Of a DNA stretch of 11,380 nucleotides, positions 1 to 11,380 are shown piece after piece. Source of the stretch: Escherichia coli (GTDB lineage Bacteria > Pseudomonadota > Gammaproteobacteria > Enterobacterales > Enterobacteriaceae); the NCBI RefSeq assembly GCF_003334255.1, contig NZ_QOWU01000083.1; one strand, given 5' to 3'. The notes under the pieces were generated by a model that searched no databases, was not told the origin of the DNA, and saw only the letters and a list, made by a program, of their open reading frames with translations. Within the stretch, counting starts at the first letter, position 1; each line of letters opens with the position of its first letter. Position numbers and translations under genes: made by a program.

Positions 1-62
1 AATCGGTGGAGCTGCATGACAAAGTCATCGGGCATTATCTGAACATAAAACACTATCAATAA

Positions 63-575
63 GTTGGAGTCATTACCAAACAGGGATTATTTATTCTCTC
101 AGGCGAGAATAAAATAGACGAAGAATGTTTCATTAATATAGTCCAAACGGCTGTCGCCATAAATAACATCGGTAGAGAATCTAATGGTTATATTTTAGTT
201 GGTGTTTCCGATACCAAAGCTACGGCAGACAGAGTTAAGACTTTATATGGTGTTACCCCTATTGAGTGCAATGGCTATTATATCAATGGAATTGATCATG
301 AAGCTGTAATTCAATCAAAAAACATAGATAATTACTTTCTGTTCATAAAACAAAAAATAGAATCATTTAATTTTAATGAGGCTTTGAAACAACAAATACT
401 AAAAGATATTTCATTATGTTCATATGAAGGACTGCATGTTTTAAAAATCGAAATAAAAAGTGTCGGAGAAGTCTGTCATTTTGAAAATAGGTATTATATA
501 AGACAAGGAACAGCTACGCATTTAATCACTGACGGTGAAGCAATTAGTAGTTTACACAGATTATATTACTCATAA
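63..575 (+). CDS. Start-less ORF with Schlafen/AlbA_2-like domain signature (possible truncated or disrupted gene)
   Basis: Frame is open from 63 to the TAA at 573-575 (171 codons) in AT-rich DNA, where long open frames are unlikely by chance. Translation contains ...CFINIVQTAVAINNIGRESNGYILVGVSD... and ...GLHVLKIEIKSVGEVCHFENRYYIRQGTATHLI..., which resemble the AlbA_2/Schlafen-type motifs (CAFANtxGGxLxIGVxD; ...YIRxGxxT) from memory. No ATG/GTG in frame; first canonical start is TTG at 384; in-frame TAA at 60-62 and all three frames closed within the first 62 nt. Confidence 0.35.
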   Translation, partial: VGVITKQGLFILSGENKIDEECFINIVQTAVAINNIGRESNGYILVGVSDTKATADRVKTLYGVTPIECNGYYINGIDHEAVIQSKNIDNYFLFIKQKIESFNFNEALKQQILKDISLCSYEGLHVLKIEIKSVGEVCHFENRYYIRQGTATHLITDGEAISSLHRLYYS

Positions 576-1278
576 TTACTTAAGCACTATGAAGGTATCA
601 TACACCTTCATAGTGTACTTTTTTACTGCGCTTTGGGGCTAAATTGTTTTTGTGAATAGCCAGAATATCGTGGCTACGGCGGCAATGGAAATATATGATC
701 TCTGCTGCCAGAGACTGGAGATGTAATTGGGGGCAGTTTGGATATCGAAAATTATTGTACTATAAGGGGTCCGCTTGAGGGGGCCGCTTGGAAAACGGAA
801 ATTTTCCCACGCTAAGAGAATTGAGTTGAACGAGTGGTTACATCTAGGCCAGCTAACTCACTGAACGTAAAGGCTGTACGAAATGTTCCGACCGTCCGAT
901 AACCATTTGGCTTACTTCCGTACATTTCCTTGCGTAGATGTACAGAATTGTACGATTTCGGACACCAAAACTGCTGTTGTCCCGGTGCATGAAGCTACTT
1001 TCCGGGTTGGTGGTACTGACTTTGGTGTTCTTAACGACGACGTTTTCAACTCTGAAAATCGCCTCTCTGCACGGGGATTTTTACCCCCCCATAGAGCCGT
1101 CATATAAATTCAAATTATTAACTTTGATGGTAGAATTATCTTAGGTTTGATAAAATTTTGAGCCGTCGCCGTTTACTTCACAGGATTCAATATAATGGCT
1201 AAATATACAGTTTGTGATTACCAATAAACTATTAGAAATAATGGGAATGGTTGTGCCAATCTCTATCTGGAGGTCTTA

Positions 1279-1500
1279 TTGCAGGGAACATCCACCCCAT
1301 CGTTACACCAATACAGAATTGCCCCCGATACAAGACATCCAGACATTAACCTAATAAAAGCGCACCTTGACGAGGGCTTTCAGCAGGCAAAGTCTGAGGG
1401 ATTAAAAGTAGAGATTTCAGATTATAAAGAACGTCTTTACCTGTACATTAGAACACCTGGTAATAACCTAATGCAATATTCTGGTTGCAGAGAAAAATAA
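1279..1500 (+). CDS. Hypothetical small ORF (73 aa, TTG start); weak resemblance to integrase N-terminal arm-type segment; possibly a remnant
   Basis: ORF track only; TTG start, no convincing RBS. Segment ...SDYKERLYLYIRTPGN... loosely resembles the D-G-x-GLYLxVxPxGxK motif of P4-type integrase N-termini. Speculative. Confidence 0.2.
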   Translation: MQGTSTPSLHQYRIAPDTRHPDINLIKAHLDEGFQQAKSEGLKVEISDYKERLYLYIRTPGNNLMQYSGCREK

Positions 1501-1607
1501 TACAGTCGCGCTGGATACGCTGACATTGACGCAGTTATATGATTTTCTGGCGTTGGTCAGTAAACCAGCTGCAGCCAAAACGGTGTAGTCCCTGACACAG
1601 GCGCCGG

Positions 1608-1844
1608 TCATTCTGTTAACTCATCCACGTATGGGATGAACAGTTGTTTCAGTTTGAAACCAGGGATGTCAGACGGATTTTTGCTGGCGAGTACGAAATC
1701 CGTTACGAACTTAATGGCCAGACTATTTATGTATTGCGCCTGTGACACACACGAGAAAACAGGTAGATTGTGTGTGAGGGCAACTTTAACATAGCCTGCA
1801 GGTGTTAATTCAGGAGCATTGTTATCAGACCAAATATTTTTCAT
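1608..1844 (-). CDS. Hypothetical protein (78 aa)
   Basis: ATG-initiated ORF on the minus strand in AT-rich DNA; weak RBS; divergent from the 1873-2154 ORF. No recognisable family. Confidence 0.3.
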
Positions 1845-1872
1845 TCCATTAAATAGTCTTGTAGGGGATAAA

Positions 1873-2154
1873 ATGAATTACGATGAAATAACGAAAATCA
1901 CTGCAGAACGTATTAGCGACTACATGACTGAAGCGGTTAATACAGACTCTAAATCTGTTGCGGAAATGTTTCATAACGCTGCATGGGGAGTGCTATCATT
2001 GTGGTTTGAACTCGTCACAAAAATAGATCTGGATATACATAAAAAGAACAGGTATGCAAGTTATGATTTTAGAAGAAAAATCGAAATGCAGCATGAAGAG
2101 TTTCAGAAAATGACAGAGCGTGAGCAAGTGCCTTTATTGAAATTGCCTGAATAA
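1873..2154 (+). CDS. Hypothetical protein (93 aa from ATG 1873; ORF track gives a TTG start at 1819)
   Basis: ATG at 1873 preceded by AGGGGA (about 1863-1868) at reasonable spacing; ORF ends TAA 2152-2154; followed by a strong hairpin at 2220-2266. No recognisable family. Confidence 0.4.
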
Positions 2155-2219
2155 CAGAGACAGTGCAAACGATTATTTCATAATAACGATTATGTAATGA
2201 CTGGTAAGAAAATAACTTG

Positions 2220-2266
2220 ATTGAGTTCCCTTTATCCAGCCTGATAGTGGATAAAGGGAACTCAAT
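2220..2266. terminator. Perfect 18-19 bp inverted repeat hairpin between convergent genes; likely bidirectional intrinsic terminator
   Basis: TTGAGTTCCCTTTATCCA (2221-2238) / loop GCCTGATAG / TGGATAAAGGGAACTCAA (2248-2265), exact reverse complements. Flanked by A/T-rich sequence on both sides. Lies between the stop of the + ORF (2154) and the stop of parR (2277, minus). Confidence 0.55.
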
Positions 2267-2276
2267 AATAATTGAA

Positions 2277-2630
2277 TTAATTTATTAGCTTCATCGCATT
2301 TTTTTTGGTCTCTTCATCACTTTTTTGCTCTTGTTGTGAAGAGGATTGAGTGACTATTGAAGAATTAAAATCGGCCATCTCTTTTGGAAATAGCGATCTC
2401 AATATATTCACGATATCTGAAAATGTGGTTTCTTTCGTCAGCAGCTCACATAAAAGGAAAGGGGTCCGGGGATCTTGTCTGTATAAGGCCAGACCTGCCG
2501 TCAGTGCGGCCCGGTTAAGGCGGCTTCGTTCCCCTTGCGGGATACTGTCCAGTGTATCACAAACAATTTTATCTGTTTGATTTACATCTGGATTTAGTTT
2601 GAAGGCAATGGTTCTGCGCTTGTCCATCAT
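2277..2630 (-). CDS. parR: ParR (StbB) centromere-binding adaptor protein of type II (actin-like) partition system
   Basis: 117-aa translation [54 protein letters not shown]... matches my recollection of plasmid R1 ParR. Lies immediately downstream of parM with a TAATG stop/start overlap, the known parMR operon arrangement. Confidence 0.9.
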   Translation of the reverse strand: MMDKRRTIAFKLNPDVNQTDKIVCDTLDSIPQGERSRLNRAALTAGLALYRQDPRTPFLLCELLTKETTFSDIVNILRSLFPKEMADFNSSIVTQSSSQQEQKSDEETKKNAMKLIN

Positions 2631-3592
2631 TAATTACCTATGAGATACATACCGTTAACTAAATCATATTGAGAGTTATTGGTTTTGAAAAAACGTTCAT
2701 CACGAATCTGTGTGTGTTTTTTTACTGCATCGCATATTAATTCTGCGCCACCGCCTATAACCATAACATGAGTATAACCAGAAAATTCATTGAGCGTATT
2801 TAATACACGTTGCTCAAGTTTACGAAGTGCTTCATTCATTGCTTCGGTGACTATTGATATTTTGTTCTCATCATTAATTCGTTGCTTCAGATAGTTATTA
2901 TCTTTTCTGTGAATGATTATATCGTCAGCAAGATAGCTACTTCCTTTTGTTCTCGCAAGAGAAAGGGCATCTTTTACTGCAGATGTAACCAGAGAGACAC
3001 CAAGAGATGAGTCTCCGTATATTTTACTGATCCCCGATAATTTCCCCATTACCTGAGAAATATCTAATGTGGTGCCCCCGAGATCTATAATTAATAAAGA
3101 ATCTAACTCATCCAGTTCTTGTAGAACTTCATAACCTGCCGGTATAGATTCAGGCATGACTTTTACATCTTTTATTGTGAATGTATCCCCGCCATTTAAT
3201 GTAATTTTTTTCCGGAAGTTTGCTTTCTTACGCTCAATATTTTCCGTATTGGGTTGGTTATTTCTGTCGTAATACTCTGTCAGAGGAAGTGTGCAAACAA
3301 TATCCACTTCGCTTACCGGCAGACCACTGGTCAGTAAGGCGTGATGCACTGCAACGACATTAACGTCGCTGTATTGCCATGCGATATTGGTTGTGACTAC
3401 AGCATCCGGGCTGATTGGATCAAATGAATACTGTTCGCCGTTCAGTGTGTAGTTAAAGACCTTTTTATCACCAAAAGAGACTGCCCACTCGCGTTTGAAG
3501 CTGTTCGGGCTAATGTGCTGTTTAATTGTTCCGTCGCTTTCCTGCCACTGTAGTTTGATGTTTGTTGAACCGTCATCAATGAATACCAACAT
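2630..3592 (-). CDS. parM: ParM (StbA) actin-like plasmid segregation ATPase
   Basis: 320-aa translation [22 protein letters not shown]...[14 protein letters not shown]...[11 protein letters not shown]... carries actin-fold phosphate-binding motifs (DDGSTN, DLGGTT, GGGA) and matches R1 ParM as I recall it. RBS AAGGAG lies upstream of the ATG at 3590-3592. Confidence 0.95.
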
Positions 3593-3607
3593 TTATAAAA
3601 CTCCTTA

Positions 3608-3772
3608 TGGTGTTTTTTTGGTGTGTGTTTGGGTATGTTTTGGGTTTTAAGTGGGTTTGTTTGTCAAGTTTACCCCATTTCAACCATCAATCAATGATTA
3701 TTTGTCTTGTTTTGGTGTTTTATTGGGTTGGGTATGGGTTGTTTTTGGGTTTTGTTTGGCGGGTAACAAAAG
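3608..3772 (-). promoter_or_regulatory. parC: parC centromere/promoter region: two blocks of about five 11-bp iterons flanking the parMR promoter
   Basis: 11-bp periodic T/G-rich repeats on the + strand (for example ttgggtatgtt, ttgggttttaa, gtgggtttgtt, then after a ~45-bp spacer ttgttttggtg, ttttattgggt, tgggtatgggt, tgtttttgggt, tttgtttggcg). The spacer, read on the minus strand, contains TTGATT-16 bp-TAAACT and TTGACA. Architecture matches established R1 parC (10 iterons around the promoter). Confidence 0.7.
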
Positions 3773-4108
3773 ATGTCGCCGGGCTCCTCTTTTTACTGCG
3801 CCGGCTGACGCGGCGCGGCAGGAACGCTGCCTGTGGTCAGTGTCCCGCGTCCGGCCGGGCACGGGACGGGCGCTTTTACCGCTCCCGGCTGGCGTTGGTG
3901 ACAGTGTACGCCAGCCCGTCGCCCTTTTCTGATGAACGCCCTTCAAGCCGCTTTCGCGGCATATCCTCGCCGTCAAAAAGACGACGGCTGCGGTATTCCA
4001 CGGTCGGCCTGACCCGTTACCGGACGCGGTGAACAGCCCACAGGCAGCGGGGAACGGGCACCACAGGGGTGCCCTCCCGGTGCCCTCTGTAAGAGAAGGA
4101 GTGCTGTT
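3773..4108 (+). promoter_or_regulatory. Long GC-rich untranslated leader upstream of the methyltransferase operon; candidate structured promoter/ssi-like element
   Basis: About 335 bp with no credible ORF (only overlapping R/P/G-rich frames on both strands). Shares the 13-mer TGAACAGCCCACA (4030-4042) with 8399-8411. Ends with RBS AAGGAG before ATG 4109. Confidence 0.3.
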
Positions 4109-4792
4109 ATGTCCCGTTTTATCCTGGGTGACTGCGTGCGTGTTATGGCCACGTTTCCGGGCAATGCTGTCGATTTCATCCTCACCGACCCGCCGTATCT
4201 CGTCGGTTTCCGTGACCGTTCCGGGCGCACCATCGCCGGCGATAAAACCGATGAATGGCTGCAACCAGCCTGTAATGAAATGTACCGCGTACTCAAAAAA
4301 GACGCGTTAATGGTGAGCTTCTATGGCTGGAACCGCGTCGATCGCTTTATGGCCGCCTGGAAAAATGCGGGATTCAGCGTTGTTGGTCACCTGGTCTTCA
4401 CCAAAAACTACACATCGAAGGCCGCATATGTGGGCTATCGCCACGAATGTGCCTACATCCTGGCAAAAGGCCGTCCACGTCTGCCACAAAACCCGCTGCC
4501 GGACGTGCTGGGCTGGAAATATTCGGGCAATCGCCATCACCCGACGGAAAAGCCCGTTACCAGCCTGCAACCGCTGATTGAGAGCTTCACACACCCGAAC
4601 GCAATTGTGCTGGACCCGTTTGCAGGCAGCGGCTCAACCTGCGTCGCCGCCCTCCAGTCCGGACGCCGGTATATCGGTATCGAGCTGCTTGAGCAGTATC
4701 ACCGTGCCGGGCAGCAACGCCTTGCCGCCGTGCAACGGGCCATGCAGCAGGGGGCCGCGAATGATGACTGGTTTATGCCGGAGGCTGCGTAA
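4109..4792 (+). CDS. Orphan DNA methyltransferase, N6-adenine/N4-cytosine beta class (PF01555-like)
   Basis: 227 aa. Motif IV DPPY near the N-terminus (LTDPPYLVG) and motif I near the C-terminus (VLDPFAGSGSTCVAA), the order typical of beta-class amino-methyltransferases. Good RBS AAGGAG before the ATG. No adjacent restriction endonuclease candidate. Confidence 0.85.
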   Translation: MSRFILGDCVRVMATFPGNAVDFILTDPPYLVGFRDRSGRTIAGDKTDEWLQPACNEMYRVLKKDALMVSFYGWNRVDRFMAAWKNAGFSVVGHLVFTKNYTSKAAYVGYRHECAYILAKGRPRLPQNPLPDVLGWKYSGNRHHPTEKPVTSLQPLIESFTHPNAIVLDPFAGSGSTCVAALQSGRRYIGIELLEQYHRAGQQRLAAVQRAMQQGAANDDWFMPEAA

Positions 4793-5014
4793 ATGAACTA
4801 TGCAGGACACGAAAAACTGCGCGCCGAAGTGGCGGAGGTGGCCAATGCCATGTGCGACCTGCGTACAACCATGAATGAGATGGAGCAGCGGTACAGCTTT
4901 AATGCCGACACCCTGCCGGAACGTCTGGTGCGTCAGACGCTGTTTCGCGCAAACCGCCTCCTGATGGAGGCATATACCGAAATTCTGGAACTGGAAGCGT
5001 GCTTTAAAGATTGA
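4793..5014 (+). CDS. Hypothetical protein (73 aa), translationally coupled to the methyltransferase
   Basis: ATG immediately follows the methyltransferase TAA (TAAATG); GGAGG lies about 10 nt upstream; GC-rich codon usage consistent with neighbours. No recognisable family. Confidence 0.55.
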   Translation: MNYAGHEKLRAEVAEVANAMCDLRTTMNEMEQRYSFNADTLPERLVRQTLFRANRLLMEAYTEILELEACFKD

Positions 5015-5027
5015 GAAGGAGACGAGA

Positions 5028-5462
5028 ATGTACGGAACATGCGAAACGCTATGCCGGGAGCTGGCAGTAAAGTATCCGGGAGACATGCCGCTGATGCTGG
5101 TTATCTGGTCCCCGGAAGAGATTCAGGCACTGGCTGACGGTATGGAAATTTCTCTGACCGGTCATGAAATCAGGACCGTCCTGGCACGCCTGGAGGACAT
5201 CCCGGAAGACCAGCGGATTGAGTCCGGTATTTCTTCCGCTGCGGTGATGGAGATTATCCGCAACGAGAGCGAAAACCGCCTGGTGACCGTCCCTGCTGAA
5301 CTGCTGGCGTCCCTGATTCAGACCGCTGAACAGGCATTGTGGAAACGTGAATGGGCCGCCCGGGATCATGGCCTCGCCGTCCCGGAATGCGTCACCCGCC
5401 GTCAGGAGGTGGTTAATCAGGCCCGCACCCTGCTGAAAAACAACACACACGAAAACGACTGA
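5028..5462 (+). CDS. Conserved plasmid protein of unknown function (144 aa; possibly DUF1380-like), paralog of 7179-7601
   Basis: RBS GAAGGAGACGAGAATG. Aligns by eye with the 7179-7601 product (MY.T...RE...SLT..E..TV..RL.D...RxVTVPA..L). The DUF name is recalled, not verified. Confidence 0.6.
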
Positions 5463-6289
5463 TGTTATCGCCGCCTGCCCTGCGGGCGGCGATACAGGGA
5501 GAACGCTTAATCATGAACGAAAACAGCACGCTGAACGCACTGATTTGTCGTCACGCCCGCAACCTGCTGCTGGCGCAGGGCTGGCCGGAAGAGACGGATG
5601 TTGACCAGCGTAACCCGAAGTATCCGGGCTGGATCAGCATTTATGTTCTGCTGGATGCGCCCCGGCTGGCGACGTTACTTATCAACCGTCACGGCGGCGT
5701 ACTGCCGCCGCTCCTGGCCTCCGCCATTCAGAAACTGACCGGAACCGGGGCGGAACTGGTACTGTCCGGCAGTCAGTGGCAGTCGCTGCCGGTACTTCCG
5801 GCAGACGGAACGCAGGTGTCTTTCCCGTATGCCGGAGAATGGCTGACCGAAGACGAAATCAGGGCTGTACTTGCGGCGGTGCGCGATGCGGTACGCAGTG
5901 TCAGTTGCCGGGTGGCAGAAGATGCGCGGCGTATCCGGGCGGCGCTGACCACCACCGGTCAGACGTTGCTGACTCGCCAGACGCGCCGCTTTCGTCTGGT
6001 TGTGAAGGAAAGCGATCACCCCTGCTGGCTCGATGAAGATGACGAAAACCTGCCCGTGGTGCTCGATGCCATCGTGAACCGGGGAGCACGTTTTTCGTCG
6101 GTGGAAATGTACCTGGTCAGCGATTGTATTGAGCATATCCTGTCCAGTGGGCTGGCCTGCGATGTGCTGCGTATACCGGATGAACCGCCCCGCCGCTGGT
6201 TTGACCGTGGTGTTCTGCGGGAGGTGGTCCGGGAAGCCCGGGCCGAAATCCGCAGCATGGCGGATGCCCTGGCAAAAATCCGGAAATGA
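5462..6289 (+). CDS. Hypothetical protein (275 aa; alternative start ATG 5513 giving 258 aa)
   Basis: ATG 5462 overlaps the upstream stop (TGATG). An internal ATG at 5513 has its own RBS (AGGGAGA). Long GC-rich ORF co-oriented with neighbours. No recognisable motif. Confidence 0.6.
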
Positions 6290-6706
6290 TGACGTTGGCG
6301 GGGTAAATCCCCGCCTTTTTCCTGCCGGTCCCCGGACAGAGCACAAAGGAAGTCGCCGCCGGCTCCGCTTTACCCGGCCATGCAGGGCATGGCCTTGTGG
6401 TTTTTCAGTTATGTGGCCTCAGCGTCGTGTGCGGGCTGTGCCGTGCCTCCATCTTAGCCGGGCTGGCAGGGATGCAAGGGTACGCTTCGCCGCTGCGGTC
6501 ACCCGGTCCCTCCTTCCCGTCTGCCGTGATTTTCCGGTCGTTCACCCGCTCAGATTTCGCGGTCTCACCCTCCAACTCCCGCCAGCCGTGTGCGTCAGGC
6601 TGCGGCTTCCCTTGCGCCCTGTGCATCCCCGCCTTATCGCCCGGCTTTTATGGAGGCACGGCACCGCCCGGTGTCGCGGAATATGTGAACAACGGAGGAA
6701 AACATC
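6290..6706 (+). promoter_or_regulatory. GC-rich about 415-bp untranslated region upstream of klcA; candidate structured promoter/ssi-like element
   Basis: No credible ORF (the 6129-6734 and 6397-6741 frames are R/C/W/P-rich and overlap). Ends with TGAACAACGGAGGAAAACATCATG (RBS GGAGGA before klcA ATG 6707). Confidence 0.3.
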
Positions 6707-7132
6707 ATGCAATATGCGAAACCTGTCACTCTGAACGTTGAAGAGTGCGACCGTCTCTCCTTTCTACCGTATCTGTTTGGCAACGATTTTCTGTATGCCG
6801 AGGCGTATGTGTACGCGCTGGCGCAAAAAATGATGCCGGAATATCAGGGAGGCTTCTGGCACTTCATCCGCCTGCCGGACGGTGGCGGTTACATGATGCC
6901 GGATGGCGACCGTTTCCACATGGTGAACGGTGCAAACTGGTTTGACCGTACCGTGAGTGCTGATGCCGCAGGCATCATTCTGACTTCCCTTGTGATTAAC
7001 CGCCAGTTGTGGCTGTACCACGACAGCGGGGATGCAGGACTGACCCAGCTTTACCGGATGCGCGATGCGCAGTTGTGGCGTCACATCGAATTTCACCCCG
7101 AATGCAACGCGATTTACGCGGCACTGGACTGA
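6707..7132 (+). CDS. klcA: KlcA/ArdB-family antirestriction protein
   Basis: 141 aa; ...[68 protein letters not shown]... matches my recollection of KlcA/ArdB (Antirestrict family) proteins on IncF/IncP/IncN plasmids. RBS GGAGGA 7 nt upstream. Confidence 0.85.
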
Positions 7133-8058: not shown

Positions 8059-8409
8059 TCGTCAGGCCCGACTCCGACAGGCAGCTGCTGGCGCACCTGC
8101 CAGTCTCCGCCGAACCCGCTGGCGCGGTTTCGGGCTGCCGCTACGGTCCGATGCGTGAAAACCCCTGGCTTGCAGCGACCGTTCCGGTCGCGCCGCCTCT
8201 GTCGCGCCGTGGCCTGCGCTCCCGGCATCCCGGCAAAAGGCCGCCGGGATGTAAGGGGCAACGCCGTTTCGCGCACGCGCTCTCCGTCGTTGCGGCGGGC
8301 CCCTGCTCATTGCCTGCCGGGTGCCACACACCCGTATGAGTCCCTGTCGCCGGGGGCTGATACAGCCACAACCTGCCGCACTGACTGTCCAGGGTAAATG
8401 AACAGCCCA

Positions 8410-8445
8410 CAAAATTTTTTACCCAAAACCCGGTAAAAAATTTTG
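8410..8445. repeat. Perfect 14-bp inverted repeat (CAAAATTTTTTACC / GGTAAAAAATTTTG) with 8-nt loop
   Basis: 8410-8423 and 8432-8445 are exact reverse complements; an AT-rich stem embedded in GC-rich DNA, immediately after the shared 13-mer TGAACAGCCCACA. Confidence 0.5.
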
Positions 8446-8729
8446 CGTTCTGCCCAGGACAGGTGCGTCAGGCCGTGGCAGTGATGCCCCTTGCGGCGAA
8501 GGTTCTCAAACGGGTGAAGTTCATACCACAGTGAATACAGCAGCAGGTTCCCGCGAAACGTCAAAACCGCGGCTCCCGAAACTCAACGGGTGATGTTCTT
8601 TAAAAATCAGGATTTATTTCAGGCTCCGGCAATACGCATTTATTTGTTCTGTCAGTCATCCGGCTGACAGGTAATGAGAACGCAGGAACAGAAGGAGGAA
8701 AACACCGGAAAGCGTCAGATGCAGATATG

Positions 8730-11246: not shown

Positions 11247-11380
11247 GATGTTGTTGTTCCTGCTACTGCTACTGCTACTGCTACTGCTCTTCTTTTTCCT
11301 GCCGCTCTGATTCTGACTACTGCAGTGTTGTCCTGTCTGCCGGGCGCACCTTCGGCTCCCGGCTGCCTGGCGGCATCCGG
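11247..11380. repeat. Copy 2 of the repeated leading-region element, truncated by the window end; contains a (TGCTAC)4-5 microsatellite insertion relative to copy 1
   Basis: 11304-11380 matches 7982-8058 (76/77). Between the shared GATGTTGTTGTTCC and the core there are tandem hexamers TGCTAC x4 plus TGCTC (11261-11289) that are absent from copy 1. Confidence 0.6.

Follow-up and report, generated by a model that had tools for sequence, protein, structure and literature searches.

The window, an 11,380-nucleotide stretch of Escherichia coli DNA, carries on its minus strand parR (stbB; 2277–2630, 117 residues) and parM (stbA; 2630–3592, 320 residues), both present in the list of open reading frames (ORFs), with the parM stop codon overlapped by the parR start at 2630. 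ParM matched the solved structures of R1 ParM (PDB 1mwk and others) over residues 1–320 (E = 2.7e-213), as well as the Pfam domains PF06406 (StbA_N, 8.4e-81) and PF21523 (ParM C-terminal, 4.2e-72). ParR matched Pfam PF10784 (Plasmid_stab_B, 4.6e-30) and, over residues 4–104, the structure of pB171 ParR (PDB 2jd3, E = 1.4e-9). NCBIfam returned sub-threshold matches only for ParM and no match for ParR, which we took as a gap in that library; the two identities are settled by the Pfam and PDB matches. The parM product is an actin-like segregation ATPase, and the parR product, annotated in R1 and R100 as a plasmid partitioning/stability protein, is the adaptor that binds the centromere and represses its own operon. 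The locus has the composition of a type II ParMRC system: the actin-like ATPase ParM, the adaptor ParR encoded directly downstream in one operon, and an upstream parC. The par2 ParMRC locus of pB171 shares this type II architecture with R1 and encodes a homologous ParR; however, its protein is divergent from that of R1, and both its centromere layout and its plasmid backbone differ. Between parR and a convergent ORF on the plus strand (1819–2154), the sequence contains a perfect 17-bp stem-loop (2220–2266) with a folding energy of −30.2 kcal/mol as minus-strand RNA (z = −7.6), which, to judge from the sequence, is probably a bidirectional terminator closing the par operon.

Upstream of parM lies parC, read on the minus strand. 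A repeat finder combined with register analysis resolved ten 11-bp units in register, each matching the consensus GGGTTTTTTTT at 7–10 of 11 positions. Five parM-proximal iterons, which are ParR sites (3609–3663), and five distal iterons (3703–3757) flank a 39-bp core (3664–3702) that holds the par promoter. Among 5000 mononucleotide shuffles, 204 and 61, respectively, reached the lag-11 self-similarity of the two iteron sets. The par promoter (−35 TTGATT, 3694–3689; −10 TAAACT, 3672–3667; 16-nt spacer) reads leftward into parM and scores 8/12 in a relaxed hexamer scan. This arrangement is the published layout of R1 parC, in which a 39-bp core with the par promoter lies between two sets of five 11-bp iterons (PMC2241845). 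Moreover, the oligonucleotide GGGTTGTTTTTGGGTTTTGTTT, published as "iterons 1 and 2" (PMC4949242), corresponds exactly to 3736–3757, with iteron 1 at 3747–3757 and iteron 2 at 3736–3746. No iteron array was found in the window outside parC, where single scattered matches occurred at the rate expected by chance.

A megablast search of the plasmid collection returned plasmid R1 (NZ_KY749247.1, source Salmonella Paratyphi B) with 100% identity over the full 11,380 bases, the window corresponding to positions 41355–52734 of that record. The locus is therefore the reference copy of the R1 par locus and not a relative of it. R1 parMRC (the parA locus), the type specimen, shows no differences from the interval and has the same two sets of five iterons, 39-bp core promoter, ParM and ParR, and the stbA, stbB and stb cis site of R100/NR1 are identical to R1 parMRC. 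R100 (NC_002134.1) is 100% identical over window positions 2100–4200; in a base-by-base comparison it is identical over 1–6735 and divergent beyond. The abrupt divergence of R1 and R100 from 6736 falls inside a klcA-like gene and, at the sequence level, indicates a putative recombination breakpoint within the leading region. The gene order of the island of rightward genes beyond parC is equal in R1, R100, F and pESBL. ParR autorepression and ParM-driven segregation have been experimentally established for the R1 locus sequence (PMC2241845, PMC4949242). The interval 2277–3772 is textbook parMRC, and everything found in it is already known. The initial annotation had described an established and intact R1-type parMRC with an intact iteron centromere, transcribed convergently with the block to its left and divergently from the island; the ORF positions and orientations, the profile and structure matches of ParM and ParR, the identity to R1, and the agreement of both iteron sets and the 39-bp core with the publications bear this description out.

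Toward its two ends the window contains further features. Positions 1–77 are the right end of an IS1 element, terminating in ATCAATAAGTTGGAGTCATTACC. The frame that follows (78–575) encodes a 165-residue C-terminal fragment of a Schlafen/AlbA_2-domain protein (Pfam PF04326, 1.9e-5), a gene that appears to have been truncated by the IS1 insertion; the remainder of 600–1800 holds short broken ORFs only. At the other end, a non-coding run of about five copies of the hexanucleotide CTGCTA (11262–11291) follows the second methyltransferase, and RefSeq places two overlapping hypothetical ORFs across it.

Between iteron 1 and the sequences on its right lies an 8-bp junction, GGCGGGTA (3758–3765), which is not homologous to F or pESBL sequence. 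We considered the 11 bp from 3758 to 3768 as an eleventh iteron and rejected it, because it matches the consensus at 3 of 11 positions and iteron 1, as published, extends only to 3757. Plasmids without parMRC align to the query only from 3766–3768 rightward, and the right edge of the originally delimited interval, 3772, falls 7 nt inside the element that begins there. To the left of this element, F, pESBL and several other plasmids carry a DUF1281 gene followed by a terminator-like hairpin, GGCGGGCAACCGCCCGTTTCTTTT, whereas R1/R100-type plasmids carry parC and an 8-bp joint of the form GGCGG(G/A)TA. The same joint is present in divergent parC variants (L019, L020 and L044), which makes it likely, on the sequence comparison, that the parC–element junction arose by one ancestral event. 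The parC–leader junction is spanned by 1636 of the best-scoring 5000 plasmid records. The initial description of 3773–4108 as a leader abutting parC is correct as to the direct adjacency, but the adjoining sequence is not a passive leader; it belongs to a homologue of the ssp3 element, which starts at 3766.

RefSeq annotates a "hypothetical protein" across this boundary (WP_032146011.1, named yubC or yfbA in some records; 3739–4032, plus strand), with its start in iteron 2 and its frame crossing the ssp3 hairpin. In F and pESBL, the counterpart of this ORF begins within unrelated DNA. The annotated protein is probably an artefact of gene calling in the G+C-rich hairpin.

The ssp3 homologue occupies 343 nt of the minus strand (3766–4108). 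It is followed by the first gene of the island, which encodes an orphan DNA methyltransferase homologous to M.EcoGIX (4109–4792, plus strand, 227 residues; NCBIfam PRK13699, 2e-150). This protein has 92% amino-acid identity to the sole methylase annotated in the pESBL leading region, which we take to be M.EcoGIX. The element itself differs from its F counterpart at 11 of 343 positions and from that of pESBL at 16 of 343 (about 95–97% identity). The leader portion (3773–4108) is about 65% G+C, and a long imperfect inverted repeat has its arms at 3825–3854 and 4020–4049. Folded as minus-strand DNA, the element reaches −98.8 kcal/mol for 346 nt (z = −6.3), with none of 100 shuffles as stable; this lies beyond the cut-off of the published screen for hairpin promoters, which required a value below −75 kcal/mol per 300 nt.

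Functional data for this type of element come from other plasmids. In transconjugant-specific RNA-seq by Wen et al., six leading-region operons of pESBL were strongly and transiently induced on entry, and expression of leading-region genes rose by up to about 500-fold in transconjugants over the level in donors (PMC12672017). A large hairpin on the transferred strand precedes each induced operon, and the starts mapped by 5′ RACE agree with the promoters predicted in these hairpins. The hairpin that precedes M.EcoGIX is described as a separate, class 3 single-stranded DNA (ssDNA) promoter that is conserved in F, works from the transferred strand in recent transconjugants and falls silent when the DNA becomes double-stranded (PMC12672017). 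The F copy was named ssp3, and F has four operons with ssDNA promoters, ssp3 included (bioRxiv 10.64898/2026.01.09.698686). The R1 element is homologous to the class 3 promoter, lies directly upstream of an M.EcoGIX-type operon, has the transferred strand as template and forms a stem-loop. Likewise, ssp3 of pESBL and F shares with R1 its position upstream of a 227-residue methylase, its strand relation to oriT and a stable minus-strand hairpin; the difference lies in the left neighbor described above. Because of its homology to the published class 3 element, we read the "leader" as a promoter that works only on ssDNA. On our analysis, 3766–4108 is the ssp3 promoter itself and not a conventional leader fed from parC, with its activity in R1 transferred by homology from pESBL and F.

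F-type transfer begins with the 5′ end at nic, and the leading region enters first. The nic-strand oligonucleotide bound and cut by TraI, TTTGCGTGGGGTGTGGT (PMC4949242), was found on the minus strand in both F and R1, to the right of the island; in R1, about 8.1 kb separate it from the right end of the window. Given this location and the F-type polarity, the transferred strand is the minus strand of the window. The parMRC locus is separated from nic by about 15.4 kb and occupies the distal end of the conjugative leading region. All rightward island genes have the minus strand as their template, but for parM and parR it is the coding strand; the island should therefore be transcribable from incoming ssDNA, and parM and parR should not.

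Attempts to resolve the element further gave the following results. With both geometries tried, by eye and by scan, no −35/−10 pair of at least 8/12 was found on the minus strand within 3766–4108, and none was convincing. The plasmid search for the element returned more than 5000 records at 95% identity or above, while a contig search with a short 16-mer yielded mostly chance matches and six real loci, all more than 96% identical. Among 11 aligned copies, covariation amounted to one clean compensatory pair, 4060/4070, the variation being too small to prove the hairpin. This pair, which changes from A-T to G-C in three copies besides F, belongs to a small hairpin, GGGCACC-ACAG-GGGTGCCC (4054–4080). 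The hairpin separates the main stem from the ribosome-binding site and could matter in the DNA or in the 5′ UTR. Single-sided stem substitutions in the 11 copies kept wobble pairing 15 times in the plus (RNA) sense versus 7 in the transferred-strand sense, a non-significant bias drawn from copies that lack phylogenetic independence. Such a bias is surprising if the structure acts, as supposed, as DNA of the minus strand.

The Frpo/ssi elements of class 1 (Frpo1 and Frpo2 of F; ssi1–3 of ColIb-P9) likewise provide RNA polymerase with a hairpin on the transferred strand, but they are published in a different class (PMC12672017). The reading of the leader as a diverged Frpo was rejected, since 3766–4108 has no significant similarity either to the published Frpo/ssi elements or to the class 1 copies in the window. 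F, too, has a partition locus, sopABC, at the corresponding place in its backbone, just past the distal limit of this leading-region island. However, sopABC is a type Ia ParA/ParB system and, unlike R1 parMRC, is oriented like the island; about 1.9 kb lie between SopB, which ends at 5927, and the ssp3 homologue at about 7824, so that the two do not abut.

Other candidate ssDNA promoters were observed in the window. The region 6290–6707, upstream of a klcA/ardB-like gene, is 97% identical to the F sequence upstream of yfgB, and 96% identical to pESBL; it shares 82% identity with Frpo′ 4, a candidate proposed by Samuel et al. 2024, and its minus-strand hairpin has a predicted energy of −106.9 kcal/mol (z = −5.7). 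These similarities identify it, at the level of sequence, as the class 2 ssDNA promoter ssp2, which in F is reported as a replication roadblock. A class 1 (Frpo-type) hairpin at 8252–8584, 78% identical to F ssiD, precedes a DUF3560/methyltransferase operon that is absent from F; the surrounding 8160–8595 shares 93% identity with the F sequence that precedes ssb and contains Frpo2. Upstream of this hairpin, the G+C-rich segment 7949–8058 is repeated with 88% identity at 11271–11380, ahead of ssb. By eye, a motif GGAGCC..GGCGACATC(C/T)TT recurs on the transferred strand at the promoter-distal ends of ssp3 (3772–3790), the class 2 element, and Frpo′ 4 and Frpo* 3 of Samuel et al., which hints at a possible common module boundary between classes reported to be unrelated.

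For the R1 locus sequence it is established that ParR dimers bind the ten iterons of double-stranded parC, repressing the par promoter and building the segrosome, and that ParM filaments capture the ParR–parC complex and push sister plasmids apart. For conjugative entry, we propose the following sequence of events. When the minus strand enters a recipient, 3766–4108 would fold into the long hairpin, and host RNA polymerase would use it to transcribe the operon of the M.EcoGIX-like methylase. Complementary-strand synthesis would then remove the hairpin and switch ssp3 off. The parM and parR genes would be expressed only after duplex conversion. F ssp3 has been reported to lack roadblock activity, and conversion outside the leading region to be continuous (bioRxiv 10.64898/2026.01.09.698686); from this continuity it would follow that the hairpin near parC is silenced at about the time when parC becomes duplex. 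ParR bound none of the ssDNA tested in gel shifts (PMC4949242). Since ParR would be made only after this conversion to duplex DNA, a molecule that has just entered would never carry ParR and an active ssp3 together. The back-to-back arrangement would accordingly mark the boundary between a zygotically induced block and a maintenance block and not a shared control region. As one explanation, the parMRC identity, the presence of ssp3 beside parC and the strand-separated expression very probably hold together.

The principal alternative to this boundary is that a conventional promoter in or near parC reads rightward into the methylase operon and is modulated by ParR, which would turn parC into a bidirectional operator. 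The adjacency that suggests it is real and, in the plasmid records counted above, conserved. In addition, a relaxed scan detected one rightward 8/12 pair, TTTACC-18-AATGAT, in the parC core (3669–3698), and transcripts from it would cross iterons 5 to 1. However, this pair is at chance level, and the standard scan detected no rightward sigma-70-like site of at least 9/12 in 3593–4108; a rightward promoter in parC or the leader was rejected on these results. Over 2100–4300, five sigma-70 sites were found against 3.9 expected from shuffles. Furthermore, the same operon and the 343-nt element function in F and pESBL, where parC is absent, and the induction of pESBL leading-region genes in transconjugants implies that their expression in the duplex state is low whatever the neighbor. 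We consider a ParR-modulated promoter of this kind very unlikely. More generally, the question put in the initial annotation, whether ParR bound at parC acts on the methyltransferase operon, has a weak foundation. ParR control of this operon appears improbable from the sequence, because there is no rightward site, no further iteron array, and an element that works in F and pESBL without parC. It is also unlikely because ssp3 acts on ssDNA, to which ParR showed no binding in gel shifts, and because the transferred strand cannot serve as template for parM and parR.

A narrower proposal concerns established duplex plasmids, in which the ParR–parC complex, 8 bp from ssp3, might affect the methylase operon by silencing residual transcription or by altering extrusion of the repeat. 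We give this very little credence; if it were true, the anti-restriction operon of R1/R100-type plasmids would be quieter or differently timed than that of F- and pESBL-type plasmids, which have the DUF1281 gene in this place. Least probable of all, and extremely so, is that the bent, U-shaped ParR–parC complex tunes the duration or leakiness of ssp3 by changing supercoiling or cruciform extrusion or by blocking synthesis or read-through: parC is intrinsically curved and is folded by about 150 degrees by ParR (PMC2241845), the 30-nt arms of the inverted repeat lie 60 bp from the last iteron, and complementary-strand synthesis would, by the F data, enter the leading region from the parC side, yet F ssp3 shows no reported roadblock in a region bordered by continuous conversion, a naive recipient would have no ParR until parC is already duplex, ParR failed to bind ssDNA, and in vivo cruciform extrusion is supported by no data.

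We therefore return to the reading of parC as the edge of the leading region, next to an ssp3 promoter. For plasmid segregation by an actin-like protein, parMRC serves as the reference case, and the adjoining element was published in 2025–2026, so that the locus carries little weight as a discovery. The corrected reading nonetheless aids the annotation of the thousands of IncF plasmids that have this junction, in which a probably spurious ORF is annotated over the hairpin. It also means that the G+C-rich "leaders" of the island would be promoters formed by hairpins in the transferred strand. The reversal of gene direction at parC would then be the point at which zygotic expression driven from single-stranded DNA ends and the duplex-dependent maintenance functions of the plasmid begin.
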